A stretch of DNA of 64,000 bases, taken from NCBI GenBank assembly GCA_051362555.1, contig CM120642.1, positions 28,582,001 to 28,646,000 on the forward strand, in the 5' to 3' direction. Source of the DNA: Lingula anatina. Taxonomy: Eukaryota; Animalia; Brachiopoda. Position 1 is the first letter of the stretch. Each line of letters starts with the position of its first letter. A model generated the notes under the pieces. That model was not told the origin of the DNA. It saw only the letters and a program-made list of their open reading frames with translations, and made no database searches. Positions 1 to 51,391 of this stretch are shown one piece after another. The position numbers and the translations under genes are program-made.

Positions 1-43
1 CAGAGAACGTGCAGCTTATTTTATACACACTTTATTATTGCAG

Positions 44-9000: not shown

Positions 9001-11143
9001 ACTGGTTACGAAGTGTGTGAAAGTCTTCTCCTATCTCAGATATGGCGTTACTGGCCTGACTGTTCATGTATTGCAGCTTGTGTTTTATTTCTTTGAAGTC
9101 GAAACCAACAACGTCTATTTGGCTGCGAAGGTAGTTGTATTTCTGTGTGCTCTCGTAATTCATCTCTGTGAAGAGAGTTTTCATGGATTCTCCCTCCTCA
9201 CTGTTCTGCTGAATGAGTTGGAGGAGATTCTCCAGTTGCTTTTTACTTTCCACGCTAATGTTAACAAAGGCTTTCTTATTATATTGCCATTGTTGACTGA
9301 TGTTATTGACTTTTCCCTTCAGCTGCTTCAGCTCATCTTGGACAGCTTCCACCTTGTTGTCATTTTCCACACTATTCTTAACTTTGGTAAGCTGCAGGGT
9401 GACATTGTTGATCAGTTCCTCTAGTTTTAATAGACTGCTATCTTGTTGCTGTACATGTTTGTGCATTCCTGTAACTTCCTCCTTTATTGTTCTCTCATAT
9501 TGGGTGAGGTGGTGAATTTTGTTGTCTATTGTATTTTCTTTTTCTTCCAATTTTGACAAAATGGCATCCAGAGGAGAAATGTCTCCTGATCCTTCTTCCT
9601 CTGGCGCATACCTCACATTCGCTATCACATTTAACCTGTCACTGCCTGAGAAGGATGGTTTATATACAGAGTAGGGGAATGAAGGGTTGCTGGATGATGA
9701 CGAAGTTGAAGATGGTAATGTTGTTGATGCTGTTGTTGTTGTTGTAGGTGGCAGTGATGATGAGGTTACAACAGTCGTAGTTTTGTCTTCTTCTTTTTCT
9801 TCTGTTTCGTATATAAAACTTTGCAGTCCAGTCTGAAGCTGTTTAAGGATAGTTTTATCCTTTATAACCCCAGTTCTAAGATCTCTCATGTCTTTCTCCA
9901 ACAAACTCAACCTCTTATTAATCCTGTGTGCATTTTGGGTGTTGTTGGACTGCACTTCCTGTGCCACGTTGTCAACTCTATCGCGTATCGTTGTCAGGTT
10001 TCCAAAGAGGTACGTCTGTTGGTTTTTAAGGTCCATGATTCCCCAGCCCTGGTTGGCCGACTGCTTGGTCAGTTCTTCCAAACTGTCTTTATTCTCCCCG
10101 CGAAGGTTCTCCAGAGCGATCACCTTAGTTCTCAACATCACAATCTCTCTTGCCTGAGCAGCCACTGCAGATTCTAGTCCTGCCAGCACTGTCCTGAAAT
10201 GTGACAGTAATATAAACAAATTTAATATGTAATGAAATTGCTAATTCAAGTGACAATATCTGATTGTGAGTGAAAGCCGTGTTAAGTAGCCAAGAAAACT
10301 AAATGCATGAAATGGTTGGAATATTTTGAAAAGAAAATTGCCATTAATTATATTGTGACATATTACTAAGACTGACAGTAGAGCATTTAAGCTAACTATT
10401 TTTGGACTTTTTTAGTTTTGCCTAAAATGCACAGTTTGTAACTTTAAATGTTTATTCAAATTTGAGTGTGTTGGGATATGACTGGCTTCTCTAACGAAAT
10501 ATGTTTATCAACATTCAAAAGGACGATATAACTCATGTCCTATCCTTTGCTATTTTGACTTTCCTCTGTAAAAAAACAATGTCAAACAGTTAATGTTGTC
10601 ATATAAAAAATACTCAGTGAAAAAATGTTTTTACAACAAATATCTCTTAAATTCAAACAAAGAGCACCTGGTTTAGTGGCGAAAAATACACACCAAATCC
10701 AGTTGGTCACATCACAGGACAAGTGGTATTAATCTTCTTATGAGAACAGAATTGCACTATGATTTGGTTTAAAACTGCTATGATTTAGTGTAAAACTGCC
10801 TGGGGCATGTATTTTGCTGTATTTAGAACTGGAAAGCAGCCACACATACTAAACCCCTTTTTCACATCCTGCCTTATGTGACGTGCAGTAAACTTAACTG
10901 GACTGGTCTTTTTTTGAGAGATTGACAACTTTAAATCGCCTGGCTATTGTATATATAAAAGAGTCACCGAAACAACATTCTGTTAATGCTCGGTTAATTT
11001 GCATTTCATTTTTTTTTTCTTAAAAGTAGCATTATTTTCCTTTTCTATATCTTTTGTGTAACTTATTTTATGTATTCTCAAAATGAAAAAAAAATGTTAG
11101 GAGTTTCCCTAACATATAAAAGTATAAACCCAAGTTTAAAAAA

Positions 11144-11211
<68 letters not shown>

Positions 11212-14200
11212 TTTTTTTAACTTGGGTTTATACTTTTAAAATTTCATGATTCTTTAGAACATGCACAAGATTTTGAGAAAAGCAGTCAATTTTTGATCGA
11301 TTGAATGGAAATGAAGCAACATTTTACAAATAATTAGAATAGCCAGGATAGCATAGCTCAGGATTTAAGCTTTTAATCATAAAGGTGAATAGGGAATACT
11401 GGGACATGTTTTTATAACTTGAAAATAGGGAAATTGTGAAATTGAAAAAATTCAGAATTTAATTTAATAGAGTATTTCTCACATACAATTGGAGTGACAA
11501 CACTATTGTTCCCTTTAAACTGGTTAAAAATTAAATTTCTGTCCATAAAGTCATTACATAAGAAGAAAAGTGTGCATGTGTGAAAAATAAATAAAACAAT
11601 GGAACTTCTTTATTGCTTTATTGAATGAGGTGAGAAAAAATTGGCTGTCGCACTCTGGTTTACAGATACACAAAGCTGACTACTTCAATATGGTCAGTTT
11701 TTTAGCAGTGTTACTGTAGCTGGATTAGATTTGAGGGGTCAGTGAACAGTTAAAGTGCTCTGTCGCAGAAGAAAGCGCAGCATGGGAGAGAGCCGTGCTA
11801 ATCCACCACTTCATGTCAACCATTAGCAAAAAAGATTTTGAAGAATTTTTTTCTGATACTGACACAAATGGTAATGATGGGAGTTGTGCGAAGTGCTCCC
11901 ATAAACTATTTATAACACTCGTCTCCATCTCATTTATGTTTGGGTTTGCAGACAATTTTACCTCATTTAAACTAATTTAAATAGGGTATAAAAGTTCAAA
12001 TTTAAATTGAATTTTCTTCTCTATTGTGCCCCAGTTGGCATTTGAAATACATAAATGTTCATAGCATAATGTCTACAAATATGAGGCATATGTTACAAAG
12101 GTCAAACTTTTCTGAAAGAGGTTTTATTTCGTTAATGCTATGGATCCAATGTGCAAGATGATGAAATATTAAATTTAAGTTCTAAAGGATGCAAGTGATA
12201 TAACTGACCTGCATAGCACAACTAGAAGTTTGTGGAACTTGAAGTATGTACAATGGTTTATTTGAAGGATTTGTGAAGTTTGGTATGCAAAATAACCTTT
12301 GAAGTTTTGTTTTAATGACAGTTACAGCATTAAAAATTACTCTTTTTTTTTGTACAATCAATAGTTTTCTGTGTTGATGCTATGTTGATATTGGCCTGTC
12401 AATTAGAATGTTGAAACGACATGGCAAATCCAAAAAATAACTCTTTGATGAAAACCTGGTTTTACACTTAACAAGAAATAATATTTACAGATTTTCGTAT
12501 TTTTTCAGGAAGAACCACACCCATTAAATATTTTCACTTCACCTGTCTTGTTTCCGTACACCTCAGAAGAGATGTAAATTATGGTTTGTAATTAGGTTTG
12601 GTTTTTCTAGCCACATGCCATGTTTGTTTGTGGCGACCTCTAGTGGCCTCCCAGAGGGGAGCAATCAGGACCACATGATAGAGAGACCACCAAGTGGAGA
12701 AAACTGTTTTCATTCAGTAAATTCCCTAGTCTGTCTGGTGCAGGAGGTTAGTTACAAGCTTCATTTCCTGATGACATTCACCAACAATTATGAAAATATT
12801 GGTTTCAGGTTGTTTTAACTAACCACACGGCAAAGACTGTATGTGCATGAACGTGTGTATATTATAATTAACAGCAGAGAAAACTGGAGACCAGATGAGA
12901 GTTTAATTTGGAAATTATTTCCATTAAAAACCACAATATTATTTTCTTATCACCTCACTATTAAACCAATGGGTAGCTTTTGATTTAACAAAATAACTTA
13001 TATACTGGTTTGTCTATACCTAAGGTAGCCATTGCAGCAAAAATATAGCCAATGAAATGAGAGATAACAAATAAAAGGTGCTGCGTGTGGGTGATAATTA
13101 TAGCTCAACCACAACTCTGTAGTTCAATAAATCTTTATAGAGAGCAAGTGTAATATTTAATTATGTTTAAACAAGAGCTCTGGTGTTTTCTTTTACTTCT
13201 TTGTCTATGTAAGAAATGAAGACATTACAGACAATTTGGTCAAATTTAACAAGTATATTACATGTACAGGTACTTATCGGCATTATATTAAGGGCTACTT
13301 GTAGACACAGAATGTTGCCAGAGTGCATTAATCTGTAATTGGTAGTCATATTGTCTATACATTTCAAGGGCAATAGAGCTAACAAAGGGCCCCTCTACAG
13401 CATTTCCAGGAGTAATATTCCTCATATTTTCTTAATTTTAGACAGATGTTAACTGGATTAATTCAAGGAACTCAAATTTCATGTTTCACTTCAGATCTGG
13501 TCGGGCTTCACAGGGCTGACCACTGCCATATGAATAAAAAATGAGGGCTTTGATGTTGAAATTCAAGATACTATCACTGAAGTGTTTCTCTTTAAAGTTA
13601 TTTTTTATTCTAGATGTCTAACAATGGTGCACTGTACTTACATGAGTTTTAATGTTACAATGTAGCTAGCCAAATTTTGTTTTAGCACCTGGCTATAGCA
13701 TGCTCCGTCTTGAAATTAATGAATGAAGACAAAACAATATTTTTATTGTGATATTTCAGGAAAAAATAATTTCTGTTTGTTAATTTGTTGATCTAAGCAG
13801 TATCTTTCAAGAGATTATTTGTATGGAGCTGATGAAAGAAGAGTGAAGCCATTGAAACCCAGCAAGAATCCTTGCTTGATTTCATTCACAGGTCAGATAT
13901 TGATCAGACATAGAAGCCAGATTTACAAACAAGTCTTCATTTCCCTTAACTGATATAGACAGAGGCAATCTTAGACTGTCTTTAATCTTGCTGACAAACA
14001 TCTACATGATGATTGATGACTCTTCAACAATTGCTGATTTTTTTTCATTTAAATAAAAAAGTGATAAATTAAAACCCTTTAAAAGCTTTTGGCCTGGGTC
14101 TTATTAAAAGAGTTGTAGATGTTAGGTTAAAAGGCATCAAGTGCTTTATACTGTTACTTGGCCTTTTTTGCTATGCATTGTTATGACTATCAATTTAGAC

Positions 14201-30639: not shown

Positions 30640-32036
30640 AACATGTATATGTATATATATATATATGTCTACACATCAAATATTTCATGATGGTTACTTA
30701 CAATTGGATCTTTTTCATTAATTTTTTTTAATTTAGATACATGAAAATGGACCATGTGATTTTTGTAATGCCCTCTTTTACATTATCTTTGCAAAATCAA
30801 CAACTATTATCTTTCTGGACATCAGTTTAAAAAGAAGTTGTTGAGTGAATCATAGTTAAAGAGGGTGTAATTAATACAGTCATATAACTCTTAATGGAGG
30901 AACCAGATCATACAGGCTTTTATAGTACTTAAACAGAGTGATTTATTTTTATGAGCGTGCATATGAACAGAGTGTTAAATGACATGGACCAATCCAGAAG
31001 ATAAAGCTTGATTTATTTTCATATGTCTGCTGCTTGCGCATTGGAATGCATCTTGTTTTATGCAGACACAAATCCCAAACAGGCACATGCAGAATTAAAC
31101 GTGTAAAATTTGCAGTCCCAAGTGAGAAGAAATCTCCAACATATGGATGGAGGGATTACATGGTGTGAAAACTACATGTCAAAGAAAGCTTAACAGAAAA
31201 TAACTCAAGATTTTGTGCTTCAAAATTGGTGAGAAATTGATGGTAAAGAATAAAGCATGCTTCTTATCATGGCTTACATAGAGCATTAATAATTAATTTT
31301 TTGTTATCTTATTAAAAGAGCAATATATTATTCTGTGATAATATAATCAGAAATATGATTGTTTCATATTCAGAATTGTGCTTAAGTATATTTTGCTTAC
31401 ATGTTTGTTGATATATACATATATATATATATATATATACACATTGCTGATGTTTTTGTTGTTGTATACATTTAATGTTTTTGCCTTAAAAATAATTAAC
31501 ATTTCGTGTACATAAATTTTTTGTCAGCGGTGATGGTGGGTTTTACTGAAAAGTTGTTTGTTAAATATTGCCTAAAAAGTCAACAAAGAAACGGTGCTGA
31601 TAGTTGCAACATTCATTGTTATATATTTGTTTTTAAATTGTTAAAATTAAGTGAATCAGGTGGCTCAGTTCATTGCCAGAAATCAGAAAAACTATTCAGA
31701 GTGCAACAATGGAACAAAATGTTACTTAAAAGTTATATTTTTTATAGAAGTGTCAGTTTTGAGATATGGAAATAAAACACGACAAATTACAACCTTTGAA
31801 ACTTATAGATTTTTGTGTACTACGTACTTCTTTTTATGTTACAAATCTACTGGCGGATAGTTTTAAAATCAAATCATAAACAATGGAAAAAGACAAACGG
31901 GATTGTTTATCTAAAACTAAATCTTTATGAAAGAAGAAATATTAACTTATTATGCTAAAGATGTTCTACTTTATGGAAAGATACTTTATGGAAAGATAGA
32001 GGTCAAGTCGTTTGTCATCTGTTAGTTGGTAAATAC
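30640..32036 (+). repeat. Copy 1 (uninterrupted) of a ~1.4-kb tandem duplication downstream of the TBC stop codon
   Basis: 30640-31300 matches 32037-32696; 31301-32029 matches 38397-38437 plus 48264-48960, with scattered substitutions and small indels. Confidence 0.92.
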
Positions 32037-33559
32037 AACATGTATATGTATATATATATATATGTCTACACATCAAATATTTCTTGATGGTTACTTACAA
32101 TTGGATCTTTTTCATTAATTTTTTTAATTTAGATACATGAAAATGGACCATGTGATTTTTGTAATGCCCTCTTTTACATAATCTTTGCAAAATCAACAGC
32201 TATTATCTCTCTGAACATCAGTTTAATAAGGAGTTGTTGAGTGAATCATAGTTAAAGAGGGTGTAATTAATACAGTCATATAACTCTTAATTGAGGAACC
32301 AGGTCATACAGGATTTTTATAGTACTTAAACAGAATGATTTATTTTTATAAACGTGCATATGAACAGAGTGTTAAATGACATGGACCAACCCAGAAGATA
32401 AAGCTTGATTTATTTTCATGTCTGCTGCTTGCGCATTGGAATGCATCTTGTTTTATACAGACACAAATCCCAAACAGGCACATGCAGAATTAAACGTGTA
32501 AAATTTGCAGTCCCAAGTGAGAAGAATTCTCCAACATATGGATGGAGGGATTACGTGGTGTAAAAACTACATGTCAAAGAAAGCTTAACAGAAAATAACT
32601 CAAGATTTTGTGCTTCAAAATTGGTGAGAAATTGATGGTAAAGAATAAAGCATGCTTCTTATCATGGCTTACATAGAGCATTAATAATTAATTTTTATGT
32701 ACAGACACAGATGTGTCTGTACATATAGCCGTCACCTGCATCTGTCGCCATCGTAGCCATCGCCGTGCACTCAGCGATAACACGATAAGTGGAATACCGT
32801 TTTACATTTTGTATTCCAATTTACAGAACTGATGAATATTCATAATTTTTAGGGAAGTTATGCTGTTTTTTCACTTTTTTTAGCATTATTATAACACCGA
32901 TAACACGATAAGTGAAAAACCTTTTTACTTTTTGGCTTGAAACTTATAAAACTGATGAATATTCATAATATGCAGGTCAAGTTCGAAAATCAGAGCTATC
33001 GGGTCAATTTTATGGAAGTTCTGCTGTTTTTTCACTTTTTTCAGCATATATGCAACACCGATAACACAATAAGTGAAAAACCGTTTTACCTTTTGGCTTG
33101 AAACTTACAGAATTGATGAATATTTTTAATACGCAGGTCAAGTTCGAAGATCAGCATGATCGGGCCATTTTAAGGGAAGTTATGCTGTTTTTTCACTTTT
33201 TTCAGCATATATGCAGCACTGATAACACAATATAAGAAAAACAGATGGGCAAATTGTCATTATACTCACAGGAGTGGTCAATCTTACTAAAACGTAGGAT
33301 GAGTTGGAAAATCAGCATAATCGGGCCATTATTTTAGAAGTTATGCTGTTTTTCACATTTCCTCAGATTCAATTCTTAGGCATGTTAACAGTCTCATTAT
33401 TGAACTAATAAGATATGTAAAAGTGTTTGTTTGACATTTCCTGCATCTTTATAACATTGTAAGTTGATTATGTAAAAATGATGGTAAACTTGTTATTGTG
33501 TATTATTCAAATTACTGTTTTTCTTTTTATCAAGAGCTTGTAAAATATGTGGGTATTAC

Positions 33560-34236: not shown

Positions 34237-34794
34237 TTTATGACTGTCAAACTTTCAAAAAAGAAAGACAGGACTAAAATGCAGCCTGAGTTGGAAAAGC
34301 AGTCTAATTGGCTTCTTTTTCTGGAAGTTATACATTTTCAAAGTGTGAACTTGTTACACATTTTACTTACATTGGTATTACCTGTTGAGCATAATTAAAT
34401 TTGATGTTGAATTTGCAGTTTAACATAATGTACTTTTGCATCAGAATTGACAGTAGCCTATTTTGTGCATAGTTATTTCCTGTTTTTTGTCTGTACGTTT
34501 GACAGCTTTGCTGCCTTGTTCAAATATTGAGACTTTCATCATGTGAATTTGAACTCTCATGGTCCTGAAACTGTAACTGAATCTTATTGAAGGGGTGGGT
34601 TGAGACCATCTTCTGGGTCTTCCGGAAGACGGTCAGGTTATTAAGTTTATATTGACTGTTATCTATTTTTTTCTGTTGGAAGACCATAAAAATGGGAGAT
34701 GGATCAACATAGATACTTTGGAATACTGTCAGAAAATATCTCTGGGTCGACTCCTGTTATTGACCATGTTACCTGTTGTGCATGATTAAAATTC

Positions 34795-36609: not shown

Positions 36610-38396
36610 ATGTACAGATACAGATGTGTCTGTACATATTGCCATCACCTGCGTCTGTCGTCGCCGATGCCGATGCCGGCGCCATGCACTTTCCTTGTAA
36701 ACACGATAAGTGGAGGGCAGTTTTACTTTTTGGCTTTATATTTACAGAGCTGATGAATATTCATAAAACGCAGGTCAAGTTTGAAAATCAGCATGATCGG
36801 GCCATTATTGTAGAAGTTATGCTGTTTTTTTCACTTTTCAGCATATATGCAACCCTGTAAACACATTTTAAGGAAAACCATTAGGCCTGTTGTCATGAAA
36901 CTCACAGGAGTAATCAATCTTACTAAAACGCAGGTCAAGTTCGAAAATCGGCATGATTGGGCCACTATTTTAGTAGTTATGCTGTTTTTTCAATTATCAG
37001 CATATATGCAACACTGTAAACACAATAGAAGAAAAACAGATGGGCCAATTGTCATTAAAACTCACAGGAGTGGTCAATCTTACTAAAACGCAGGTTGAGT
37101 TCGAAAATCAGCATAATCGGGGCATTATTTTAGAAGTTATGCTGTTTTTTCACATTTTCTCAAATTCAACTCTTAGGCATATTAACAGTCTCATTATTGA
37201 ACTAATAAGATACGTAAAAGTGTTTGTTTGACATTTCCTGCATCTTTACAACATTGTTAGTTGATTATGGAAAAATGATGGTAAACTTGTTATCGTGTAT
37301 TGTGTAATAAAGTTTTAAAAATTTAAATAAACTCATATCATTGCAGTTTGTCAGATTCAATCATTCACTATGTTCAGAATCTCAGAATGGAAGAAATTGG
37401 ACATTTAACACTGTTCTATTGATATTTTTCCCATCTCATCAATTTTCTTAGTTGATCATATAAAAATTGCAGTAAACTGTTAATTTTGTTTTATGTTTAA
37501 AAAATTGTTAAAAATGGAGAAAAAAAACATTTCAGAACAGTGCTGTCTTGTTTAAATTTTGGCATTTTCAAGTTGTGACATTGAAGTTCCATGGGCCTGA
37601 AGACCTTTGCTAGTCACATTTTCTGAATATCCATAATACTTATATTTTATTATGAAAATTGATGGTCATTATGCTGTTAAACATTATGTAATATTGCATC
37701 AAAATTTGAAAAAAACCTATTTTGGGCACTGCTCCCATGATGACCATTTAAGAAAAACCATGTCACTTACTGTTCTCAAACTTACAGGAAAGAAACATGG
37801 GACTAAAATACAGCTTCAGTAGGCAATGCAGTCTGTTTGGTAATTCTTAATGCCAGTTAAACAGTTTTTTTTTTTTGTGAAAATTTAATTTTTCACATAT
37901 TGGCATTTTCAAGGTGTGACTTTGAAGTTCCATGGGCTTGAAGACCCATGCTAGTCACATTTTCTGAAAATCCATGATATGTATATTTTATTATTAAAAA
38001 TTGACGGTCCTTATGCTGTTAACCATTATGTAATATGGCATCAGAATAGAAGAAAACACAATTTTGGGTGCTGCTGCCATGATGACCATTATGGGAAAAC
38101 CATGTTACTTATGATTGCCAAACTTTCAAAAAAGAAATACAGGACAGTCTAAAATGCAGCCTGAGTTGGAAAAGCAGTCTAATTGGCTTCTTTTTCTGGA
38201 AGTTATACATTTTCAAAGTGTGAACTTGTTACACATTTTACTTACATTGGTATTACCTGTTGAGTATATTTAAAATTTGATGTTGAATTTGCAGTTTAAC
38301 ATAATGTACTTTTGCATCAGAATTGACAGTAGCCTATTTTGTGCATAGTTATTTCCTGTTTTTTGTCTGTACATTTGACAGCTTTGCTGCCTTGTT
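36610..38396 (+). mobile_element. Non-autonomous Helentron/Helitron2-type element (HINE), copy B, apparently complete
   Basis: Same 5' hairpin (ATGTACAGATACAGATGTGTCTGTACAT), ~159-bp core repeats, a second ~341-bp internal repeat (37559/37900), and 3' GTCTGTACATTT-GACAGCTTTGCTGCC-TTGTT. Confidence 0.8.
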
Positions 38397-38437
38397 TGTT
38401 ATCTTATTAAAAGAGCAATATATTATTCTGTGATAAT

Positions 38438-38869
38438 AGTATCAGAGTTGAACTTCAGTATCAGTGGAAGAATGAGGGATCAGCAATAACCAACAACAAG
38501 ATTTTCTGTTGCCACTGACTTTATTCTATCTCTCTCCCTGTCCCTCTGTCCCTCTGTGAGGATGCAGGGGATTATATACACAAATATCAAAGACATTCCT
38601 ATGATCAAAGAGATACATTTAAGATAACTGTAAGGGCGACAACATGTCCCTTCAACTTGTGCCCAGCCAGTGTTACGGACCTGTATTTCAAGTTAAATGC
38701 TAAATATTTGTCATGGCAGGTCATTTCTGACCCTGCCCTGTAATTATCAAAATGATGCTGGAGATGTGTGTGGTAGGTCATCTCTGACTCTGTGTGCCAC
38801 GGCAGGTCATTTCTGACCCTGCCCTGTAATTACCAAAATTCACCAAAAATCACTAAATTTAACATGAAA
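38438..38869 (-). repeat. 3' LTR
   Basis: No differences from 47832-48263 seen by eye. Minus-strand TATA-like box at 38572-38578 and AATAAA at 38520-38525. Confidence 0.95.
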
Positions 38870-38871
38870 CA

Positions 38872-38883
38872 TCTTCCTGGCCC
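38872..38883 (-). promoter_or_regulatory. Polypurine tract candidate
   Basis: GGGCCAGGAAGA on the minus strand, immediately before TGTTTCATG at the start of the 3' LTR. Confidence 0.55.
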
Positions 38884-39287
38884 AATAAAATTTGTGCCTC
38901 AAATTTTGTTCACAATGTAATGACAAACAGAAATATTGTCTTATAATAGGACTACCATAATCGTAAGATAAACATGAGTGCAAGCTATTATGCTGGCAAT
39001 TATTATAGCCATAAGCAACAAAGTTTAACATTAGCATGCCTTTTCATAGTAATAATGATAATAATGCTGAAGTCTCCCTATAATAGTCTATGTCTACAAA
39101 TAATTAATGCTATTGAGCATAAAAAGATATTCTTTTAACTACCAGTAAATATGGTACATCTCTTAATTCACTGTAACAATCAAATTTGATTGCCTTAACA
39201 TTACACAGACAGATACAGTATATAATATATAATCCTGTGTTTACACATTTAAGAGATACATGTGTAGCATTGCTTGACAACCTAAAG

Positions 39288-39788
39288 TTATCATTATCCA
39301 TTACATTATCAATACCCTCCACCATCAAATCAACAATTGTTTTGTTTCATATTTGTCAATTAATTATTATAACTTTTTCTATGTGGTTACATAATTTCCA
39401 GAATCAATTCTGATTTTCTCATTAATATCATATTGAAAGTCATTATTTTATTATATCATGATGGAACATTAATATAATTCATGTATACTGTCAGTACACT
39501 CAAATATACATCTTAGAGTTACATGTACATGTATAGTTATATTTCACATCATAAATGTTATCATAATCCATTATATTATCAATACCCTCCACCATCAAAT
39601 CAAAGATTTTTGCTAAATATTGGTCATTGCTACATCAATTAATTATCATAACTTTTTCAATGTGGTTACATAATTTCGATAATCAATACTGATCGTCTCA
39701 TTAATATCAAATTAAAAATTATTTTCTTATATTATGATAGCTCATTAATATAATTCATGTATACTGTCAGTACACGCTCAAGTATACA
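39288..39788. repeat. Diverged ~230-bp direct repeat (2 copies, ~270-bp period) in the element's 3' UTR
   Basis: ATTATCAATACCCTCCACCATCAAATCAA...ATGTGGTTACATAATTTC...CATTAATATAATTCATGTATACTGTCAGTACAC occurs at 39288-39510 and 39558-39788. Confidence 0.85.
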
Positions 39789-39893
39789 ACACAAATCACT
39801 GTGGATCACACATAATCACACTCACACTCCGTAGAAGTGGACTGTTCATTAAATTGTTTTACCCTTTATAGCGTAATAAGGTCAAATTGGTAT

Positions 39894-42232
39894 TCACAGG
39901 AGGTACATTAAACGTTCATGATGCAACACTACAAGATGCGCATCAAATGGCTGATCAATTATTGACATGATAGAAAAATATTGCCACCAGGACAAGGGGA
40001 CACTGGTAGGCAATGGAATGAAGTGGTTCACCTGTCCTTGAGTCACTTTTATTGTTACATCTCCCCATTCAAGCACTAAATTTGGTCTTAATCCCTTTAT
40101 TACTATCAGGTTAGCAATAATTTGATTTCCCATTGCTTTGATATCAAATGGACACTGTTTAAGATGACATAGGTGTATCAACATGCTCTTTTCAGCATTG
40201 TTTATTTCTAGTGCTAGGCCATTTTGCTGGTGCCTACCTTTACACAAAATAATTACTCCCAGAATGATAAAAAGAAGAAGTATTGCTGAAAAGTAAACTG
40301 CAGGAGCAATTTCATGCGTTAAAATTTTATAGATGTCGAATTCAATTTTGGGTGACGGAGATGGTGAGCTATATTGGTAGATAAAATTGGGAGCAGTGTT
40401 TGCCTTGGCATGGGCCATAGTTAACATTGCAGTGCTTAAAACTTTGATTTTATAAGTAAGTGTGGCTGACAGAGCAATTGCTAGGATTGCAACACCCAAA
40501 GCTACATACCCAATTATATCATCCAGAGACAGTCCTCCTGTGGGTAATGTTAAGTCACCAGACAAGAGGGGCTCAGTCAGCGACTGAAATATAGTCTCTC
40601 CCTTTTTTGCTGCTGACATTACTTTTCGCAGATTGAGTTTAATGGAGGAATCCTTGGTTAAAAATTGTGAAAAGTTATGATTGTATAGGCGTAACGTGGG
40701 GATTGTTACTCTGGGGGGTGTTTGAAAGACGGAATGACCAAAAATATCAGAAAAGTTACCTTCATCAAAAAGTTGCTGTAAAAGTGCTAAATTTATGGGA
40801 TGAAGAATTTCAGTAGTTTCATTATGTTCACAAATTCGACGGGGAGGAATATATGTGGAGTCCCCTTCTATAGAGCAGGAACATGGCACCTTCAAAACAC
40901 AAAAATCACAACCAACTTTGGTTACATTGGATGAACACCGCATTGTCAAATTTTGAATTCTGTTAACCAGAACTTGATCTTTCCCAACTGGCGTTAAGGT
41001 GGAGGAGATGCTATTGGGTAGGAGTTGGAAATCGCAGAGGTCTTTGATGCTGGTTTTATCATTTAGTAGAAGGGCCTTTAAGCAATGAGGTTTCTTGGAT
41101 ACCTTAGTATTTTCCAGTGCACAAAACATGGGGTTTTGTCCAGTGCAAGATTTCAGAAAATCATAGTTCAGGCTAATGTGGTGGTTCCCAAAACTGGCAA
41201 AGTATTCAGGAACATTGTGGAGGAGGGTGGCATGTTTACTTGTCGCATTGAGGGGAACTGGTACTGCTTTAACATGAAACACTGTAAATAAATCGTGGGA
41301 TGCTATGGGAATTTTGATGGTGATTGCTATTGACTGATTTAAGTTATGTGTGGCAATTTTGCCATAACGGTAGTAATACTGCAAATTTTGGTTGATAAGT
41401 AGTCCTGGAAATTGTTTTTGAAGAGAAGCCTTAATTTTCTTTAAAGTGCTGCTTAGCATATGAGGGGGAAATAGAATTGGTGAAAGCTTTCCATGGGAGA
41501 CATCATTCATACCTATCATTGTATTTTCGATTTCAAAGGTGAGCTTGTTAGTTATGGTACTTACATGCATTAACTTTGTAAATAACCCAAGTGTAAAATC
41601 TATTTCATTCTCAATATACTTTAAATCACCTCCTAACATTATGTTTAACTGGTGATTGTCTTCTATCTGTTTAACCATGTTCATCATGCGTTCATTTTGC
41701 CCACTTACAATTGACCCATATTGAGAACTAAATTTGGAAAAGGATGTCAGGGCTTTTTGCTGCCTTGATTGCAATGCATTGATGTGATCAATCACCTTAT
41801 TAAGTTGGTCTTCCGTTGCCACTCCAAAGAGACTATTCGCCACCTTACCTACAAATGGAAGTGCTGATCTTTTTTGTCTATTTTCCTCAACATCATCATT
41901 GGTAAATATTTCACTTACTCTATGCCGAAGTGCTCTCAATTCACTTCTTGTTTGACTATACAACTTTCTACCTTCATCTACTGCTCTTTCGATTAATTTA
42001 CATGTTTTCTTATTTAAACGCCCATCGCAATTATACTCTAAGTTAGGCTCCATCGGAACTTCTGGCAAGTACACAAACATCGTGTGTAGCCAATAGTCGT
42101 TTACCACTGCCATCGTCCCTTCATTTCTAAAGAAAACACCGTAGTTTATCCGATTTTCAGCACTGGTAAGGGGCAGAATTGCCACAGCCATCCAGATGAC
42201 AAGCCATAGACTTATGCAATCGTATTGGGGTC
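39894..42232 (-). CDS. env: Envelope fusion glycoprotein (baculovirus-F/errantivirus class I type), probably from a spliced mRNA
   Basis: 765-aa ORF from Met 42191; the frame stays open back to a splice acceptor at 42232. Hydrophobic signal CISLWLVIWMAVAILPLTSA, furin site RQKR followed by fusion peptide SALPFVGKVANSLFGVATEDQL, heptad repeat, Cys-rich region, N-glycosylation sequons, two TM segments. Confidence 0.9.
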
Positions 42233-42445
42233 CTGAGGAGAAAAATGAGATTTTAAGAAGTGGCCTTTACCTATCTTACTTATAGAACCGGCTACAAGAA
42301 GATTGCGCATTAGGTACAAAACCAAAGATCAGAAAGGAGTAGGAGAACAGGACTGTACAATAAAAAGGCATAAGGACTAAGCGCTAGACATTTTAGAAAG
42401 ACTGCCAATTCTATACTGAGGAGTTGCATTACATCTGATCACAAT

Positions 42446-45400
42446 CTATTGACGAGTCACCAGTTTACGCTTTTTCTTCTTTCCTTTCTTCGTCTTATTA
42501 GCGTGGAATTCCTGAATTAGCAAATCTGGCACTTTATCAGCCCTAACCCAAGTCGATGTTTTTATACCTTTCCACTTTATTCTATATAGCTTTTCTCCTT
42601 TGTACCATTCATAACATAATATTTTCTCTACCTCTTTTTCCTGTGGGTTATCTATCTCAACTTCACATGGGACAGGAGTGTCAGGTACATTAGCATCAAA
42701 TTGTGCTTCTGGTTGGATATTTTCAGTATCATTGATCGGACCATTAACTGGAACATTTTGTGGAGTGATGTCATCAAACTTTGTTCTGATAATGGGGTCT
42801 TTGTATGGTTTAAGTCTATTGGCATTAACAGGGGCCTTCACAAGTTTGTTGGTGATACACTCTCTCAATTGGTATGTGGCATTGCCAAGCACTCTCACTA
42901 TATAGAAAGGCCCTATAAATTTTGGAACGAGTTTGGATGTCAAACCTTTTGGGGTTCTTTCATTTCTTAATAAAACTTTGTCCATTTCGGCATATTTTGG
43001 ATTTGTAGCATTTCGGTTATGATATTTGGCATTTTGCCACTGAGATTCCAGTTTTATTTTTGCTGCCACCTGTCTACCCTTGTTTAGAGAATCTAATCTG
43101 TCTGATACATATTTTGCCACATTATGGGGTAGGTCCCTCTTGGGTAGTAATTCAACATCTAAAGGTGTGGTCATTTCCTTTCCAAAAAGAATGAAAAATG
43201 GACTATAACCCGTCCCTTCTGTGGGAGAACTTCTATAGGCCATTAACACTGATTCTAAATGATCTGCCCAATCTGACTGATCTTCTCGACATAGGGCACG
43301 CAGTGATTGCCATATAAAACTGTTGAACCGTTCACACGTGGCATTTGTTTGGGGATGATACGATGCTGTGTAGTGTCTTTCTACATCAAAAATGTCACAA
43401 ATGGCTTGTACTAACTTTGATCTAAAATTTTGGCCTCTGTCTGTAATAATTTCAGAAGGCGCACCAAATCTTGTAAAAATATGTTTGTATAAGACATTTG
43501 CTATTTCAGTAGCCTCTTGTGATTTAAGGGCAAATGCCTCTGGCCAACGTGAAAAAGATTCGACAGCTAGCAAGATATACTTGTGTCCGGACTTTGTTGG
43601 TGTGATTGGACCTAGTATATCCAAATGCCATGTGCTGAAAACATCTTTTATGGGAAGGGGCTGTAGTAACGACTTTGTATTGTGATAACCTCTTTTGACC
43701 TTCTGACAAACACTGCAGGACTTGACATAACGTTTAATGTCCCTTGACATTTTTGGCCAGTAATATTTTAACCTGATTTTTTCTAGGCATCTCCTAAAAC
43801 CTGGATGGCAAGCGCCTGCTCTGGCATCATGGTACGCTTTCAATACCTTAGCCCTGTATTGTTTTGGCACTGCTAACTGCTCTATCAAGTTTTCATCACC
43901 TGCCTTTTGTTTTCTTCTATTTATGTGTTGCCTATACAGGATACCGTTCCTAATCAGGAAAAATTGTTTCAGGTTCTTCTTTTCTGATTGTACACTAGTA
44001 GGACTTTGGAGGAGTCTGATGATTGGAGCTAGGTCAGGGGAAGCGCTTTGATTTTGAGCCAAGTCAGTTAGTTCTACCTTATCTGGCCATTTTGTTAGTG
44101 GTGTTTTATTGACACTTGCAACTACTACTGGAGGATTTGGTCTGCAGTAATTGAATTTGATGGTATGAAGTTTCTTGTCAATTTTTGATGGGGGTGTCAG
44201 GGTATACGTGCCCTTAGCATCATCTATCATGTTGACTTTAGGTTGTGTTAGAGCTATGTCATCGTCTGCTTCATCAGTTTGTCTTGATAAACAGTCTACG
44301 GGGTTCGTGCTACCTTTCTTGTAATAAATTGAAAACTGTAAGTCTTGAATTTCAAGTGCCCACCTATTCAATTTCTGGTTTCCACTTTGTTTTGATTGCA
44401 ACCACTCCAGAGGTTTATGGTCAGTAAAGATTGAGAAATGATTGGGTTGAAGGTAAACTCGGTATTCCTTAATTCCCTCAATTAAAGCCAAACATTCTTT
44501 TTCTGTAACATTGTAATTTCTTTCTGCAGGACGCAGTGTTCTAGAACCATAAGAGATAGCATGTTCCCTTCCATCTTTGTCAACTTGACTAAGCATATAA
44601 CCTATCGCAAAGTCTGAGGCATCAGTCGTTAGTTTGAATTCTCTGTTCATGTCGGGGAATGCCAAGATAGGGGCTGTCGCTAAGGTGTTTTTTAGCTTGT
44701 CAAATGACTGTTGGCACGTGTCTGTCCAACTAAATGGTTTATCCTTTCGTGTTAATGCATTCAAGGGGGCTGCAATTTTAGCATAATTTTTGACAAAACG
44801 ACGATAGTAATTACACATACCCAAAAAGCTTTTCACTTGTGTGCGAGTTTTCGGTCTCAAAACTTTTTTGACTGCCTCTACTTTTGACATATCTACTGAA
44901 ATGCCATCTTTTGAGATGAAATGACCTAAAAAGGCTATTCGTTTAGTAGCAAATTTGCATTTTTTTGTTTTCACTTTGAGATTGGTTTCTTGTAACCGTT
45001 TGAAAACTAATTCCAAATGTTGGAGATGTTCCTCAAAATTTTTTGAAAAGATCAAAATGTCATCAATGTAACACAACACCATTTTCCAATTTAAATCTTT
45101 TAGCACACGGGCCATTGTGTTTTGGTAGTGCGCCGACGCGTTACGAAGGCCAAACGCAAGTCTTTTAAACTGAAAATGACCATGGTGGGTCACAAAAGCT
45201 GTTTTATGTCTGGTAGTCTCTTCTAAGGGAAGTTGCCAAAAGCCCGAGAATAAATCTAAAGAACTGTACACCCTGGCATTAGAGTCAGCAAGTATGTCGA
45301 GTACGTCAGTCAGTCGAGGCAAGGGAAAGTGGATGGGCGTGGTCACTTTATTTAAACGTCTATAGTCTATAGCAAAACGCATAGATCCGTCTTTTTTGCG

Positions 45401-46534
45401 AACCAAAACCACTGGGCTTGCCCACTCACTATTTGACTCCTCAATGATATCATTTCTAAGCATCTCATCTGTTTGTCTTTCTATCTCAGTCTTTTGGTCA
45501 GTTGTCTGTCTATAATGTCTTTGTCTTTGGGGCGGGGCGTTACCTGTCTCTATCACATGTCCTTTCACTTTTGCCTCTCCCATTTCTGATAAATCTGATG
45601 CAAATATATCCCTGTATTTCCCTATTAATATTAATAGTTCACCTTTCTGTTCTTCTGTCAGGTCAGTTTCATCTAAAGATAAGCCCGTTTCTTTAGCTAA
45701 CTTCAGGAAATGTGAGTTATCTATGGACTCTGCCTCTGTTGTCCCAATAAAGTGTTCCCGTTTTAAGCATGAGCTAATGTTAGCTGGACCCTCCTCACCC
45801 ATGGGTAGAATACAGTTTGTCTCTACAGGGTATGCTTTGGCCAAGACAGTGTCATTTGGAATGGTTATTGATTTGTCAGTGGGATTGTATATTCTGCACA
45901 TGCTCCGATTCTTATCTATAACACACCTAGCCACCAAATAGTGGTTATCGACAGGATCTAACAGTAGACTTTTAGCATTGGTCTTATTTGCTCCAGATAT
46001 TTTTACAGGTATTAAGCTTTCAGTTCTGGGACCAACAGTTATTTTGTGATTGGTACGCACCAGGCCTACATAATTTGGTTTATTTGTGTGACAGAACTTC
46101 TTATCATTAAATGACAGGATGCTATTTTTCATGTCAAAGGTAGCTCCATTTGTCTTTAGGAAATCAATGCCCAAAATAACATTTCTTGGAAGGTTTTGCA
46201 AAATGTAAAATTTATGAGTGAAGGAGTTTTTGCCTATGACAAAGTCAATTAAAGCACAACCAATAATTTTATGGGATTCTCCGCCTACTCCTGAGATTGT
46301 TAACAGGTCTGATTTTAAAAACTTAACTGTTGATTGCTTTTCATGTTTTAGTTCTCTCATGATGTTATCCGAAATGCAAGATATTGATGCACCTGTGTCA
46401 ATCATGGCCTTAACTGTCAGGGTATTAAAATGGATTTTAATCAAATTGTGTTCTATAGGGTCCCCTCCCATGACATTCCCTAGAAAACAACTCTCCTGTA
46501 AATTTTTCAATTTTTCCTTATTACGCAGACACCC
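42446..46534 (-). CDS. pol: Pol polyprotein: aspartic protease, RT, RNase H, integrase, C-terminal chromodomain
   Basis: MIDTGAS (PR), RFAIDYRRLN and CYIDD (RT), TTDASDFAIG (RNase H), HDARAGACH...CSVCQ (IN zinc finger), WHLDILGP/IITDRG/CERFN (DDE), IGPF, EVEKIL...YRIKWKG...TW (chromo). The frame is open from the codon directly after the gag UAG. Confidence 0.97.
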   Translation of the reverse strand, partial: GCLRNKEKLKNLQESCFLGNVMGGDPIEHNLIKIHFNTLTVKAMIDTGASISCISDNIMRELKHEKQSTVKFLKSDLLTISGVGGESHKIIGCALIDFVIGKNSFTHKFYILQNLPRNVILGIDFLKTNGATFDMKNSILSFNDKKFCHTNKPNYVGLVRTNHKITVGPRTESLIPVKISGANKTNAKSLLLDPVDNHYLVARCVIDKNRSMCRIYNPTDKSITIPNDTVLAKAYPVETNCILPMGEEGPANISSCLKREHFIGTTEAESIDNSHFLKLAKETGLSLDETDLTEEQKGELLILIGKYRDIFASDLSEMGEAKVKGHVIETGNAPPQRQRHYRQTTDQKTEIERQTDEMLRNDIIEESNSEWASPVVLVRKKDGSMRFAIDYRRLNKVTTPIHFPLPRLTDVLDILADSNARVYSSLDLFSGFWQLPLEETTRHKTAFVTHHGHFQFKRLAFGLRNASAHYQNTMARVLKDLNWKMVLCYIDDILIFSKNFEEHLQHLELVFKRLQETNLKVKTKKCKFATKRIAFLGHFISKDGISVDMSKVEAVKKVLRPKTRTQVKSFLGMCNYYRRFVKNYAKIAAPLNALTRKDKPFSWTDTCQQSFDKLKNTLATAPILAFPDMNREFKLTTDASDFAIGYMLSQVDKDGREHAISYGSRTLRPAERNYNVTEKECLALIEGIKEYRVYLQPNHFSIFTDHKPLEWLQSKQSGNQKLNRWALEIQDLQFSIYYKKGSTNPVDCLSRQTDEADDDIALTQPKVNMIDDAKGTYTLTPPSKIDKKLHTIKFNYCRPNPPVVVASVNKTPLTKWPDKVELTDLAQNQSASPDLAPIIRLLQSPTSVQSEKKNLKQFFLIRNGILYRQHINRRKQKAGDENLIEQLAVPKQYRAKVLKAYHDARAGACHPGFRRCLEKIRLKYYWPKMSRDIKRYVKSCSVCQKVKRGYHNTKSLLQPLPIKDVFSTWHLDILGPITPTKSGHKYILLAVESFSRWPEAFALKSQEATEIANVLYKHIFTRFGAPSEIITDRGQNFRSKLVQAICDIFDVERHYTASYHPQTNATCERFNSFIWQSLRALCREDQSDWADHLESVLMAYRSSPTEGTGYSPFFILFGKEMTTPLDVELLPKRDLPHNVAKYVSDRLDSLNKGRQVAAKIKLESQWQNAKYHNRNATNPKYAEMDKVLLRNERTPKGLTSKLVPKFIGPFYIVRVLGNATYQLRECITNKLVKAPVNANRLKPYKDPIIRTKFDDITPQNVPVNGPINDTENIQPEAQFDANVPDTPVPCEVEIDNPQEKEVEKILCYEWYKGEKLYRIKWKGIKTSTWVRADKVPDLLIQEFHANKTKKGKKKKRKLVTRQ

Positions 46535-47719
46535 CTATTGTTTTATGGTTCTGCAAACCACAGCCAAATGACCAATACGCTCACAGTTGTAGCATTTCAT
46601 GTTACGGGCAAAACAATTTAATTCCGTATGAAAAGTCCACTTACCACAACGTGAACACTTCCTCTCCTTTTCCTCTCTTCTCTCCTTCCTCCATTCACCC
46701 CTTCTTTCTGCACTCCTTTCACGCATCCTCTCCTTGCTGCTATCTCTAGATCGATCTGCTGGCTGGAATGATACTTTTCTGTTACTTCTCTCTGTTGAGA
46801 CTACCTGTACACTGGGCCCTTCCAAAACTCTATTTATCAATTGTGTTATTTGGCCCATCATGTTTTCTTGCATTGTGACAAATTTGTTAAGTATTAAATG
46901 ATTGTTGTCATGCTCTTTCAGGTCTGTAGACAGGGGTGCCACGGTAAGATCTGGAGACACATTAGTGGTAGCAGTTTCAGCCAAAATAGCTGCTTCTTCT
47001 AATTGTCTCAAATTTTGAGGGTTCTGCATGGTTACAGCTGCCCTTATTGTAGGTTTAAGGCCATTAATGATGGCTGCCAAAATGTGTTGCTCAGGCAATT
47101 TTACCTGATGTCCCATTTTCATCATTTTAGAAATGAAGTCTCTTACCTTTTCTTCGTCCTGTCTACTGGAAAATATAGATGCAGTCATGGATCTGATTTT
47201 GCTTGGACTAGGTCCATATCTTTCTAAAAATGACATTTTTACTCTTTGATAACTAGTTTTGTTCTGCAAACTTAGGTACCATGTTTTGGCATTTCCTTGT
47301 AATAAATAACTAAAATGCGAAAGTCTCATATTGTCATTGTATTGCATAATATCACAATATTGATCAAATTGATAAACCCAATCTGATGCACAGTCCCCAT
47401 CCTCTCCCCTAAAAGGGAAGGGAGATAGATGTTGTGGCATCGTGATTACCACTGGAATCCCTTGATTTTTCTGAGCTGCCACTGGACTCCCTTGATTTTG
47501 TTGAGCTGCACTGGGGGGCATAGGTGGCGGTGGTGGTGGTGGTGGTGGCATCTCTATCATTGCTTGGGACTGCTCCTGTTGCTGCCCTGGGGATCTTATC
47601 AGAGAGTTGGTCTGCTGGGCTTGTTGTTGTCTCTCAATCTGGTCCAGAGGCTGCAGCTCCTGTTGTTGCTGAGGACCAGGCTCATGTTGCTCTGAGGGTA
47701 CGTTGTGGTTGTTGCCCAT
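46535..47719 (-). CDS. gag: Gag (Q/P-rich N-terminus, capsid, two zinc knuckles)
   Basis: 394-aa ORF: retrotransposon capsid (FRGEDG..DWVYQF...LLQGNAKTWY...RQDEEKVRDF...IINGLKP), CSRCGKWTFHTELNC and CYNCERIGHLAVVC knuckles. Confidence 0.93.
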   Translation of the reverse strand: MGNNHNVPSEQHEPGPQQQQELQPLDQIERQQQAQQTNSLIRSPGQQQEQSQAMIEMPPPPPPPPPMPPSAAQQNQGSPVAAQKNQGIPVVITMPQHLSPFPFRGEDGDCASDWVYQFDQYCDIMQYNDNMRLSHFSYLLQGNAKTWYLSLQNKTSYQRVKMSFLERYGPSPSKIRSMTASIFSSRQDEEKVRDFISKMMKMGHQVKLPEQHILAAIINGLKPTIRAAVTMQNPQNLRQLEEAAILAETATTNVSPDLTVAPLSTDLKEHDNNHLILNKFVTMQENMMGQITQLINRVLEGPSVQVVSTERSNRKVSFQPADRSRDSSKERMRERSAERRGEWRKERREEKERKCSRCGKWTFHTELNCFARNMKCYNCERIGHLAVVCRTIKQ

Positions 47720-47824
47720 CTAATTCAGGGGTATGCTGACTCGAAGCCTGCTGTTCTGTTGCTGCTTGCTGCTGGTTGGAAGTTCTGGGGGATGCCCGTC
47801 TCATTTTTGTTGCCCTTATGGTTA

Positions 47825-47832
47825 CTCCACCA
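47825..47832 (-). promoter_or_regulatory. Primer-binding site (TGGTGGAG, tRNA-Ala-like)
   Basis: Directly abuts the 5' LTR and shares its last T. Complementary to the ...CUCCACCA 3' end of eukaryotic tRNA-Ala, but only 8 nt are recognisable. Confidence 0.6.
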
Positions 47833-48263
47833 GTATCAGAGTTGAACTTCAGTATCAGTGGAAGAATGAGGGATCAGCAATAACCAACAACAAGATTTTC
47901 TGTTGCCACTGACTTTATTCTATCTCTCTCCCTGTCCCTCTGTCCCTCTGTGAGGATGCAGGGGATTATATACACAAATATCAAAGACATTCCTATGATC
48001 AAAGAGATACATTTAAGATAACTGTAAGGGCGACAACATGTCCCTTCAACTTGTGCCCAGCCAGTGTTACGGACCTGTATTTCAAGTTAAATGCTAAATA
48101 TTTGTCATGGCAGGTCATTTCTGACCCTGCCCTGTAATTATCAAAATGATGCTGGAGATGTGTGTGGTAGGTCATCTCTGACTCTGTGTGCCACGGCAGG
48201 TCATTTCTGACCCTGCCCTGTAATTACCAAAATTCACCAAAAATCACTAAATTTAACATGAAA
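47832..48263 (-). repeat. 5' LTR
   Basis: Direct repeat of 38438-38869, followed on the minus strand by PBS and gag. Confidence 0.95.
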
Positions 48264-48320
48264 ATATAATCAGAAGTATGATTATAATTGTGCTTAAGTA
48301 TATTTTGCTTACATGTTTGT

Positions 48321-49650: not shown

Positions 49651-51391
49651 ATGGTTCACAGAAATCTGCTGTATGGCTTGGCTGGTGCACTGGTGCTGAT
49701 GGCGCTCTTGATAATGGTAAGTTCTGGCTGGTGGAATGAGAATCATCCTTTCCTTTTCAGATCACTTTTGATTCTTGTGCAATGTTTGATGATTTTATGG
49801 GTAAGTTTGACTGAAGATGATGTTGAGTTCTTTCGAGATAATACCACACCACATTTTGGCTGTTTATTTGACTGGTGATAAGGTGTTTTTGGTGATGGAT
49901 ATATTGGAAGGTCTTTCATTCAGGTGTTACTTTGCAGGAAGTTAGAAGAAGTCAGATCTGTGTATTGTTACAACAGTTGGCTGTGTGATTTGTATGCAAA
50001 TTTGGGTTGTAGAGGCTTACAAAGTTTCTTATGAATTATGAATTTGATTATAAACTGTATTTGGATCAAGTGGATCTTTTGTTACCTTTAACGATGCACA
50101 GATTAGATAAATTTTAAAATGGAATTATGTTCACATTTTTTATCCTTGAGCTTAAATATTTTATATTTTAAGTGATGGTCACAACATTTCTGGCTTATTT
50201 GAAAGTTTTCTTCTAGTGAACTGAAGATGGGATAGTTGTCACTTAAGTGACATGGTGACGTTTTGAAATGAGCTCAGATATATGTTTGTTTAGAAATCCA
50301 GTAATTTGAAAAAAAGCAGTGATTTTGTACTTTTTCAAAATTGTTCAATTACTAAACATATCATAGTATTCTAAGTGTTCAAAATAGTTGTAATACTCAT
50401 GTTCTTTCAGCTGCCAAAGAAGTTTGAAATGCTGAAGACAAATGGTGAACCAAACCATTTACCAGAACCAGCCAGTAAAAATAACCAGCATCAGACAGAG
50501 GTCTCAAGGGATCATCTGCATTTGGCACCATCTATTGACAACCCCCTGTCTCCTCCTTGTGGGGAAGTCTGTGATTTTTCCATCCACAAAAGCAAAGGAA
50601 TGTCTTTTGTCAAGAAGAATTTTAATTGTCGTAACATATTTCTGAGACTTAAATACCCTCCTGGAAAAGTGTATAAACCACCTCTACGAGAGCCACCTAC
50701 AGAGCTTTTGGATGCGTTCACACAAAATGGAGACATGGCACTGGGATCTTTTTACATGGATGGCACAACGGCTTCTAAGGGCTCCGTGTTCAAGATAGAG
50801 GACATGAACAAATTAATCAAAGACGATAAAGAGCTAAAAATGATTGGAAGTTACGGAAAAGAGAGTGCAAAGTTTAAGAATGGTCTCAGCAAATACAAAT
50901 CTGAACTGACGGGCAAGTCTGGGATAGTGATTGGGAGTATTCGTCCTTGGATAGAAGTAATGCTCATAAACATGGGTGTCAAGCATGTGACAACAGTAGA
51001 TTATAATTCTGTCATATTTGAGCATCCTCAGATATCGTTTAAACTGATGCCAGACTTGGCAGACGAAAGTATAAAAAATCAGCCACCCCAGTTTGATTTT
51101 GCTGCATCATTTTCTTCCTTAGAACACTCAGGACTTGGTCGCTATGGCGACCCTATTAATCCATATGGTGATTTTGAAGCTGCAGCGCAAATATGGTGCA
51201 TGCTTAAGCCTGGTGGGTTATTTTTTCTTGGTGTTCCTGCTTCATTTGGAAAGAGAAAAGGGACGCTGGAGTATAATGCACATCGTATCTACGGTGAAGC
51301 TCGTATCGAGCAACTCACGGCAAACTTTGAGGAAATTTATAGGTTTCATACTGGTATTCACGGTGTATTTGTGTTGAGAAAGCGAGTGTGA
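49651..51391 (+). CDS. DUF268 family protein (class I SAM-methyltransferase-like fold), type II membrane anchor, ~348 aa
   Basis: Exon 49651-49716 (MVHRNLLYGLAGALVLMALLIM|gtaagt) joined in phase 0 to 50411-51391. Motifs VIGSIRPWIE, FDFAASFSSLEHSGLGRYGDPINPYGD, LKPGGLFFLGVP, NAHRIYG. Confidence 0.85.

Follow-up and report, generated by a model that had tools for sequence, protein, structure and literature searches.

A 9.8-kb Ty3/gypsy provirus occupies positions 38438-48263 on the minus strand of the 64,000-nucleotide stretch of Lingula anatina DNA analyzed here (the window). It carries gag, pol and an F-type env between two long terminal repeats (LTRs), whose blocks at 38438-38869 and 47832-48263 match at 432 of 432 nt, bearing out the initial annotation, which had reported LTRs without visible differences. 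Comparison with a paralogous site at 31328-31360 that lacks the element gives a 4-bp target duplication and LTRs of 430 bp, with end bases ambiguous by 1 nt on each side and ends that are not TG...CA. The first 8 nt of the primer-binding site (PBS) fit what we take to be the ends of tRNA-Ala, and no tRNA genes were found in the 64-kb window. Structural features of Ty3/gypsy elements (Metaviridae) are present, namely LTRs, a short target duplication, a PBS and a polypurine tract, and the order of protease (PR), reverse transcriptase (RT), RNase H (RH) and integrase (IN) is likewise that of this family, with the catalytic motifs of all four enzymes in place. A Pfam search of the element returned Retrotrans_gag, a weak CCHC match, PR, RT, RNase H, IN, SH3, a weak chromodomain match and Baculo_F. 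The best sequence match in the PDB is Ty3 Gag-Pol (E 3e-126), and among solved structures the RT is nearest to that of Ty3.

The whole element is also present in four public runs from two studies (X1, X2, X3 and X5) at 99.5-99.6% identity. This comparison used the contigs of runs that we guess to be DNA, RNA being possible, and contig depths were not taken as copy numbers. The element's contigs in all four runs are long and without branches, in keeping with a young family of low copy number, and the identical LTRs together with 99.5% identity between samples indicate recent copying. The earlier description of a young Gypsy insertion in a non-insect host holds. Run X5 lacks one copy of the tandem duplication in the 3' untranslated region (UTR), and the best protein match of Env is a Lingula anatina protein at 98%. 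RNA mapping, proposed as a check in the initial annotation, gave 76 element reads among the 44.9 million records of four RNA runs, many of them from diverged copies, and the element is nearly silent in the runs sampled.

The same annotation had described gag, pol and env as intact and without stops or frameshifts. This is correct for pol and for env (790 aa, open frame 39894-42266), whereas gag is broken near its start. The 394-aa gag open reading frame begins at an internal AUG of weaker context; RefSeq model P0001, which derives from another copy, has residues 1-34 in the frame of the first AUG and then continues in the main gag frame; and the window differs by an indel at this point from 4 of 4 other samples. 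The frame switch and the indel together place a break near 47,700 in this copy, which by its sequence may be either a genuine lesion or an assembly error. Gag also has the zinc knuckles noted earlier, one canonical and one variant (Table 1).

Table 1. Features of the provirus, in window coordinates
Feature	Position	Strand	Remarks
5' LTR	47833..48262	-	430 bp; identical block 47832-48263; AATAAA at LTR position 345, TATA-like word at 292
3' LTR	38439..38868	-	same sequence as 5' LTR
Target-site duplication, left copy (4 bp)	38435..38438		set against empty paralogous site 31328-31360
Target-site duplication, right copy (4 bp)	48263..48266		set against empty paralogous site 31328-31360
Primer-binding site	47815..47832	-	starts TGG; sequence; directly 3' of 5' LTR
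True gag start, first AUG (47804)	47682..47804	-	only 40 codons open in this copy; P0001 residues 1-34 match frame at 100%
Frame break, 5' part of gag	47695..47705	-	this copy only; indel vs 4/4 runs; frame switch vs P0001
Main gag frame (394 aa)	46535..47719	-	Q/P-rich head, capsid (Retrotrans_gag 135-223), R/E-rich stretch, two knuckles
Intron A (687 nt, GT-AG, in frame)	46763..47449	-	would remove capsid domain; joint in run X1 and RefSeq P0001
First, variant knuckle (C-x2-C-x5-H-x4-C)	46613..46657	-	sequence; houses predicted env splice donor, last exon base 46645
Second, canonical CCHC knuckle	46553..46594	-	Pfam zf-CCHC E 0.006, below cut-off
In-frame UAG, gag/pol boundary	46535..46537	-	context CAA-UAG-GGG; type III hexamer UAGGGV; unchanged in run X2
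Pol (1362 aa)	42446..46534	-	PR (DTGA), RT (YIDD), one RNase H, mini-domain bridge, IN (HHCC, DDE), SH3/GPF, chromodomain
Integrase chromodomain	42503..42634	-	Pfam E 6e-5, 23.3 bits vs cut-off 25.1; modeled fold
Intron B (4412 nt, GT-AG)	42233..46644	-	would remove knuckles, UAG and pol; joins gag to env in frame
Env exon from phase-1 acceptor	39894..42232	-	internal signal segment, F ectodomain, furin site, fusion peptide, anchor, second membrane segment, cytosolic domain
Env hydrophobic signal segment	42162..42218	-	sole pre-ectodomain AUG of env frame lies late inside it
Furin site RQKR, then fusion peptide	41868..41879	-	sequence
Membrane anchor	40437..40517	-	followed by K-x-K and signal-like hydrophobic run
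Second membrane segment	40242..40298	-	hydrophobicity; conserved in relatives
C-terminal beta-rich domain (~110 aa)	39897..40226	-	predicted cytosolic; pLDDT 87-96; conserved columns
3' UTR, AT-rich	38870..39893	-	270-bp tandem duplication 39257-39510 / 39526-39788, 81%; purine tract 38872-38883
pLDDT, predicted local distance difference test.

Probable placement in an env-bearing chromodomain clade

The chromodomain at the end of the integrase, claimed in the initial annotation, scores just below the Pfam cut-off and is modeled as three strands and one helix at a pLDDT above 90. What we take to be aromatic-cage positions 1 and 3, by analogy with HP1, are non-aromatic. The bridge between RNase H and integrase is about 140 aa long and shows no second RNase H fold; its model has a helical stretch at 224-260 followed by strands at 261-264, 267-273 and 285-290. 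Related Pol frames with 450-600 additional residues ahead of the protease, which do not match the capsid, occur in P0010 and P0049-P0065.

We built an RT-RH tree of 168 rows from 128 proteins, 78 loci and the window, dropping rows that covered fewer than 380 residues. A phylogeny had been suggested as a check on the element's position; this one places it in a chromodomain-rich clade (Shimodaira-Hasegawa-like support 0.918) together with Mytilus and Pinctada proteins. Two metagenome relatives, L078 with a whole env and L037 with an env-tail remnant only, share the combination of knuckle, TAG and chromodomain with the window element, indicating that this set of modules is a lineage trait. L078 (positions 1-9045, from IMG/VR) is circularly permuted, with pol, chromodomain, env, one LTR-sized gap, gag, TAG and protease arranged as in the window element, and is either a one-LTR circle or a collapsed assembly.

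A survey of 'ancient errantiviruses' (Chary and Hayashi, eLife 2026; PMC13524379) describes elements with one RNase H and a mini domain of N-terminal helices and three small strands, and reports an env-bearing Ty3/gypsy clade of Cnidaria, Mollusca and Annelida, all with a chromodomain, which it places basal to chromoviruses. By our own count, its chromodomain sheet has 139 rows, of which 28 are positive; of the positives, 11 were checked and all 11 carry an F-type env. Most members of the clade have several copies of more than 98% identity per genome, and the Lingula anatina entry reads 'yes - No intact copies'. The published clade, the tree position and the F fold of Env described below together contradict the earlier view that the element fits neither the errantiviruses nor the chromoviruses and is an undescribed system; it likely belongs to this chromodomain-bearing clade. 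Weighing against this placement, the tree does not include the named elements of the survey and local support at the element is weak (0.711). None of the terms frameshift, splic-, readthrough, CCHC and zinc appears in the main text of PMC13524379, and the Env analysis reported there is of the ectodomain alone. The provirus is real and young, with slight damage, and probably belongs to the lineage described in that 2026 survey; its value lies in a proposed expression scheme and in a conserved module following the Env membrane anchor.

Expression of Gag-Pol and Env

Gag, a single UAG and pol share one frame, in agreement with the initial annotation, and the stop lies in a UAGGGV hexamer, defined as the type III readthrough context (PMC13517186). 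A -1 frameshift for gag-pol is ruled out by the common frame, and no slippery site was seen. Gag-pol junctions were surveyed in 78 fetched loci, 46 of which have a protease hit; 9 of these have an in-frame stop (including the near-duplicates L028 and L071), 17 an overlap in another frame and 7 a long frame before the protease, with 13 undecided. All three decidable loci of the element's own clade (L002, L037 and L078) have a TAG. Stop contexts in relatives include TAG-CAATCA and TGA-CAATCA, both resembling type I, the type II context TGA-CTA and the type III context TAG-GGA, next to the type III TAG-GGG of the window. Among the in-frame stops are TGA-CAATCA, TGA-CTA, TGA-GGA and TAG-GTC in L048, L028/L071, L010 and L019; L048, L028 and L010 lie in different clades from the element, suggesting that readthrough was gained more than once. 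Gag-Pol is therefore likely made by readthrough of the one UAG, judging from these junctions. We do not present readthrough by LTR retrotransposons as a novelty in itself, because Gao and colleagues reportedly noted in-frame stops in a few elements in a 2003 study of gag-pol recoding in retrotransposons.

One point against readthrough is the RNA downstream of the UAG, where a 116-nt fold gave no stable structure (z 0.49; local pairing only), given that type III readthrough usually needs such a structure (PMC13517186). This absence would suit a Pol RNA from which the UAG is spliced out, by way of the donor discussed below for env and an AG just ahead of the protease (first exon base 46479, also in phase 1); a phase-compatible pyrimidine-AG is indeed present there. 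No joint or contig break is found at that place in 4 of 4 runs, however, RNA reads from a diverged copy alter the AG synonymously (4 of 4 reads, 3 starts), and splicing would require neither the frame identity across the stop nor the known readthrough contexts of the relatives, leaving this route improbable. The stop could also be an ordinary nonsense mutation in a fused gag-pol of a dead family, as the second lesion in gag of this copy and the near absence of RNA in the four RNA runs might suggest. Because the stop is unchanged in X2 and found at the same place in distant relatives, and because identical LTRs and 99.5% identity between samples reflect recent copying, this explanation is already largely refuted and we give it almost no weight.

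In the env frame no AUG precedes the signal segment, and the best acceptor is at 42232 in phase 1. Among 52 GT sites in the leader and gag, the strongest phase-1 donor is 46645, inside the first knuckle. Ahead of the signal segment, a phase-1 acceptor ranks first or ties for first in L032, L078 and the window, which is not so in the distant L065. RefSeq models with a Gag-Env joint immediately behind the first CxxC exist in Lingula (P0001 and P0002, 48% alike in Env) and in Argopecten (P0236/P0277, with a third scallop model, P0278, in the same cluster), so that the joint is common to models of three families in two phyla. The joints of P0002 and P0277 keep the capsid; P0001 also uses the intron A joint. 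This second joint (47450/46762, with GT..AG ends), which drops the capsid, is listed in run X1. In run X2, contigs break at 42204-42233 and 46644-46673, which equal the overlaps predicted by a 46645-42232 junction, and depth is 47 over env and 24 over pol. One additional contig of depth 18.8 accounts for three bin depths in this run (48.55 vs 48.5, 27.61 vs 27.5 and 30.38 vs 30.5). If X1 and X2 are DNA runs, the joints represent retro-copied spliced RNA, and if they are RNA runs they represent transcripts; splicing is implied either way. The spliced env of the initial annotation is thus supported by the RefSeq joints, the X2 break points and depths and the X1 joint, and we consider a predicted splice from 46645 to 42232 that joins Gag to the Env signal segment well supported. 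An env RNA spliced in this way and starting at the gag AUG is likely, from its sequence, to yield a capsid-envelope fusion protein.

Several observations weigh against this scheme. None of the 76 reads of the four RNA runs is a junction read, the X2 intron B joint is deduced from break points and depths and is not among the joints listed, gag depth in X2 is 25, although a complete DNA copy without pol should have doubled it, and no break at intron B occurs in X1, X3 or X5. C-G-K codons by themselves spell such a donor: L072, which has no env hit, carries the identical 9-mer. The donor is weak at that place in L078 and absent in L037, and the RefSeq Gag-Env models are predictions. Within the same clade the joint might accordingly be a by-product, with the C-G-K donor picked by gene predictors and rare spliced RNAs copied to DNA, and functional Env made from a short upstream exon or a doubly spliced, capsid-less RNA. 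We regard this as rather unlikely, because no other phase-1 donor in the leader and gag scores above 1.4, the capsid is kept in P0002 and P0277, and X2 shows intron B without intron A. Taken together, the locus probably represents a young Ty3/gypsy provirus with gag, pol and F-type env that likely belongs to the chromodomain 'ancient errantivirus' clade, likely uses UAG readthrough and likely expresses Env from a spliced RNA starting at the gag AUG, giving a predicted capsid-envelope fusion.

Env architecture and a proposed mechanism

Env is of the F type, as first annotated, on the basis of a Baculo_F match (Pfam E 1e-9), the RQKR furin site and the fold of its model (pLDDT 83.5, 116 sequences). 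Foldseek matched this model to the F protein of respiratory syncytial virus (E 5e-12), and that of human metapneumovirus aligned over 382 residues (Z 11.4, root-mean-square deviation 7.3); a sequence search against the PDB gave no meaningful match. Structure searches used the whole model, and their matches are dominated by the ectodomain. The additional membrane domain reported earlier corresponds to a second C-terminal hydrophobic segment, and in 105 of 115 full-length Env relatives the C-terminal part likewise carries two hydrophobic segments, with a median tail of 143 aa. After the anchor follow a basic pair, a signal-like run, a P-x-F-x-Y stretch, the second membrane segment and the beta-rich domain, for which no Pfam hit was obtained and, for a homologue, no usable Atlas match. 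The Env family comprises 9,582 clusters at E up to 0.001. The top BFVD matches of the Env model are chu-like virus glycoproteins and an 801-aa uncharacterized abalone herpesvirus protein (A0A145VUZ2), with alignments of at least 800 columns and high root-mean-square deviations. Gene flow between these retroelements and invertebrate viruses is possible, as far as such models indicate.

In the mechanism we propose, full-length RNA would give Gag and, at a few percent, Gag-Pol, and the splice from 46645 to 42232 would attach Gag, ending with the first CxxC, to the signal segment of Env. An optional second intron (47449-46763) would remove the capsid and leave a short leader. The internal signal segment would thread the ectodomain into the endoplasmic reticulum, where signal peptidase and furin would mature the fusogen, and a membrane-anchored Gag fragment would remain on the cytosolic face. 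The run after the anchor could act as a second internal signal that turns the Env tail into a small membrane protein with a cytosolic beta-domain, likely matrix-like in envelopment. The copy in the window, being crippled for Gag by the 5' frame break, would depend on sister copies. We tentatively extend this scheme, as an idea with somewhat less than even prospects, to a large marine-invertebrate retrovirus lineage in which splicing welds capsid to a fusogen precursor, the membrane-anchored capsid co-assembles with Gag in place of matrix and the Env tail forms a second small membrane protein with a cytosolic domain, an Env architecture maybe shared in similar form with chu-like viruses and the abalone herpesvirus.

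Env-bearing Ty3/gypsy elements are ancient and their mechanism of transmission is unknown outside Drosophila, according to PMC13524379. For a lineage of this size the locus offers concrete, testable steps, namely how Pol is produced, how Env is started and what could link a Gag lacking any known matrix domain to a membrane. Readthrough of the gammaretrovirus kind, in several classes, would thereby be added to the features of an env-bearing Gypsy clade. For Lingula anatina, entered in the 2026 survey without intact copies, the locus provides a brachiopod member whose pol and env are open. Neither gag-pol readthrough, a capsid-keeping Gag-Env splice nor a post-anchor module was found for this group in the literature searched (subscription journals, Repbase and Dfam excluded), and the same searches returned no donor in gag that keeps the whole capsid. 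A search for Gag fusions above 1,921 aa returned none; it covered only proteins above that length and is uninformative for a Gag-Env near 1,100 aa.

Outside the provirus, the left flank at 37900-38397 (also 34238-34520) is an extremely abundant dispersed repeat with a summed contig depth of hundreds of thousands in two runs. A diverged 161-bp unit forms arrays at 32847-33329 and 36645-37150, and the surroundings of the insertion are partly duplicated at 31270-31983. A single-exon-looking 338-aa frame at 50375-51391 (plus strand) matches DUF268 (E 2e-38), a family named from Caenorhabditis. At 7818-10240 (minus strand) lies a gene with a coiled coil and a fibrinogen domain (angiopoietin-like layout), opposite a RabGAP-TBC exon at 6635-7111 (plus strand) and perhaps nested in its intron, and a 122-nt near-perfect palindrome, (A)n(TA)n(T)n, spans 11117-11238.

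Comparison with known systems

The element resembles the chromodomain clade of ancient errantiviruses in its gag-pol-env order, its F-type env with furin site and fusion peptide, its chromodomain and its single RNase H with a mini domain, the last matched to the text of PMC13524379 by secondary structure without overlay. An Ala-type PBS is likewise annotated for two named members, Mare_errantivirus_1 and Gmag_errantivirus_4, in the supplement of that paper. It differs in the likely readthrough, the likely Gag-Env splice and the post-anchor module, on which the main text of PMC13524379 is silent. With insect errantiviruses, also termed iERVs (gypsy, ZAM and Idefix), it shares an F-type Env and, probably, the production of Env from a spliced subgenomic RNA.

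Insect errantiviruses have gag and pol in different frames, use frameshifting and are not known to carry knuckles, whereas the element has both genes in one frame with one UAG. Its predicted env donor sits at the end of gag, after the capsid, and it has no second RNase H fold in place of their pseudo-RNase H. According to PMC12992720, the idefix subclade has an env donor within gag, and the spliced Env of insect errantiviruses consists of a signal peptide at the N-terminus, an ectodomain region with a single membrane segment and a tail. Gammaretroviruses and snakehead retrovirus share with the element the in-frame gag/pol UAG with its UAGGGV hexamer (PMC13517186). The element has neither tether and second RNase H nor an SU/TM env, carrying an F-type one instead, and local folding gave no stable structure after its UAG; it would work in a similar way to gammaretroviruses without being a member. 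Retroviridae and the Odin-Loki elements have a dual RNase H, with tether and second RNase H (PMC12440569, PMC9040795), unlike the one RNase H here.

Chromoviruses (Tf1, Maggy, Sushi and Reina) resemble the element in the chromodomain at the integrase end, and the element has an SH3_Tf2-1 match; they are not known to have the env that it bears. P0104, an algal chromodomain element and the one likely chromovirus row in the tree, lies far from it. The predicted Env leader of the element resembles that of foamy viruses, in which a long cytosolic N-terminal stretch precedes an internal signal segment, remains anchored in the membrane and contacts the capsid. The foamy virus leader is env-encoded, whereas the leader of the element would be Gag itself.

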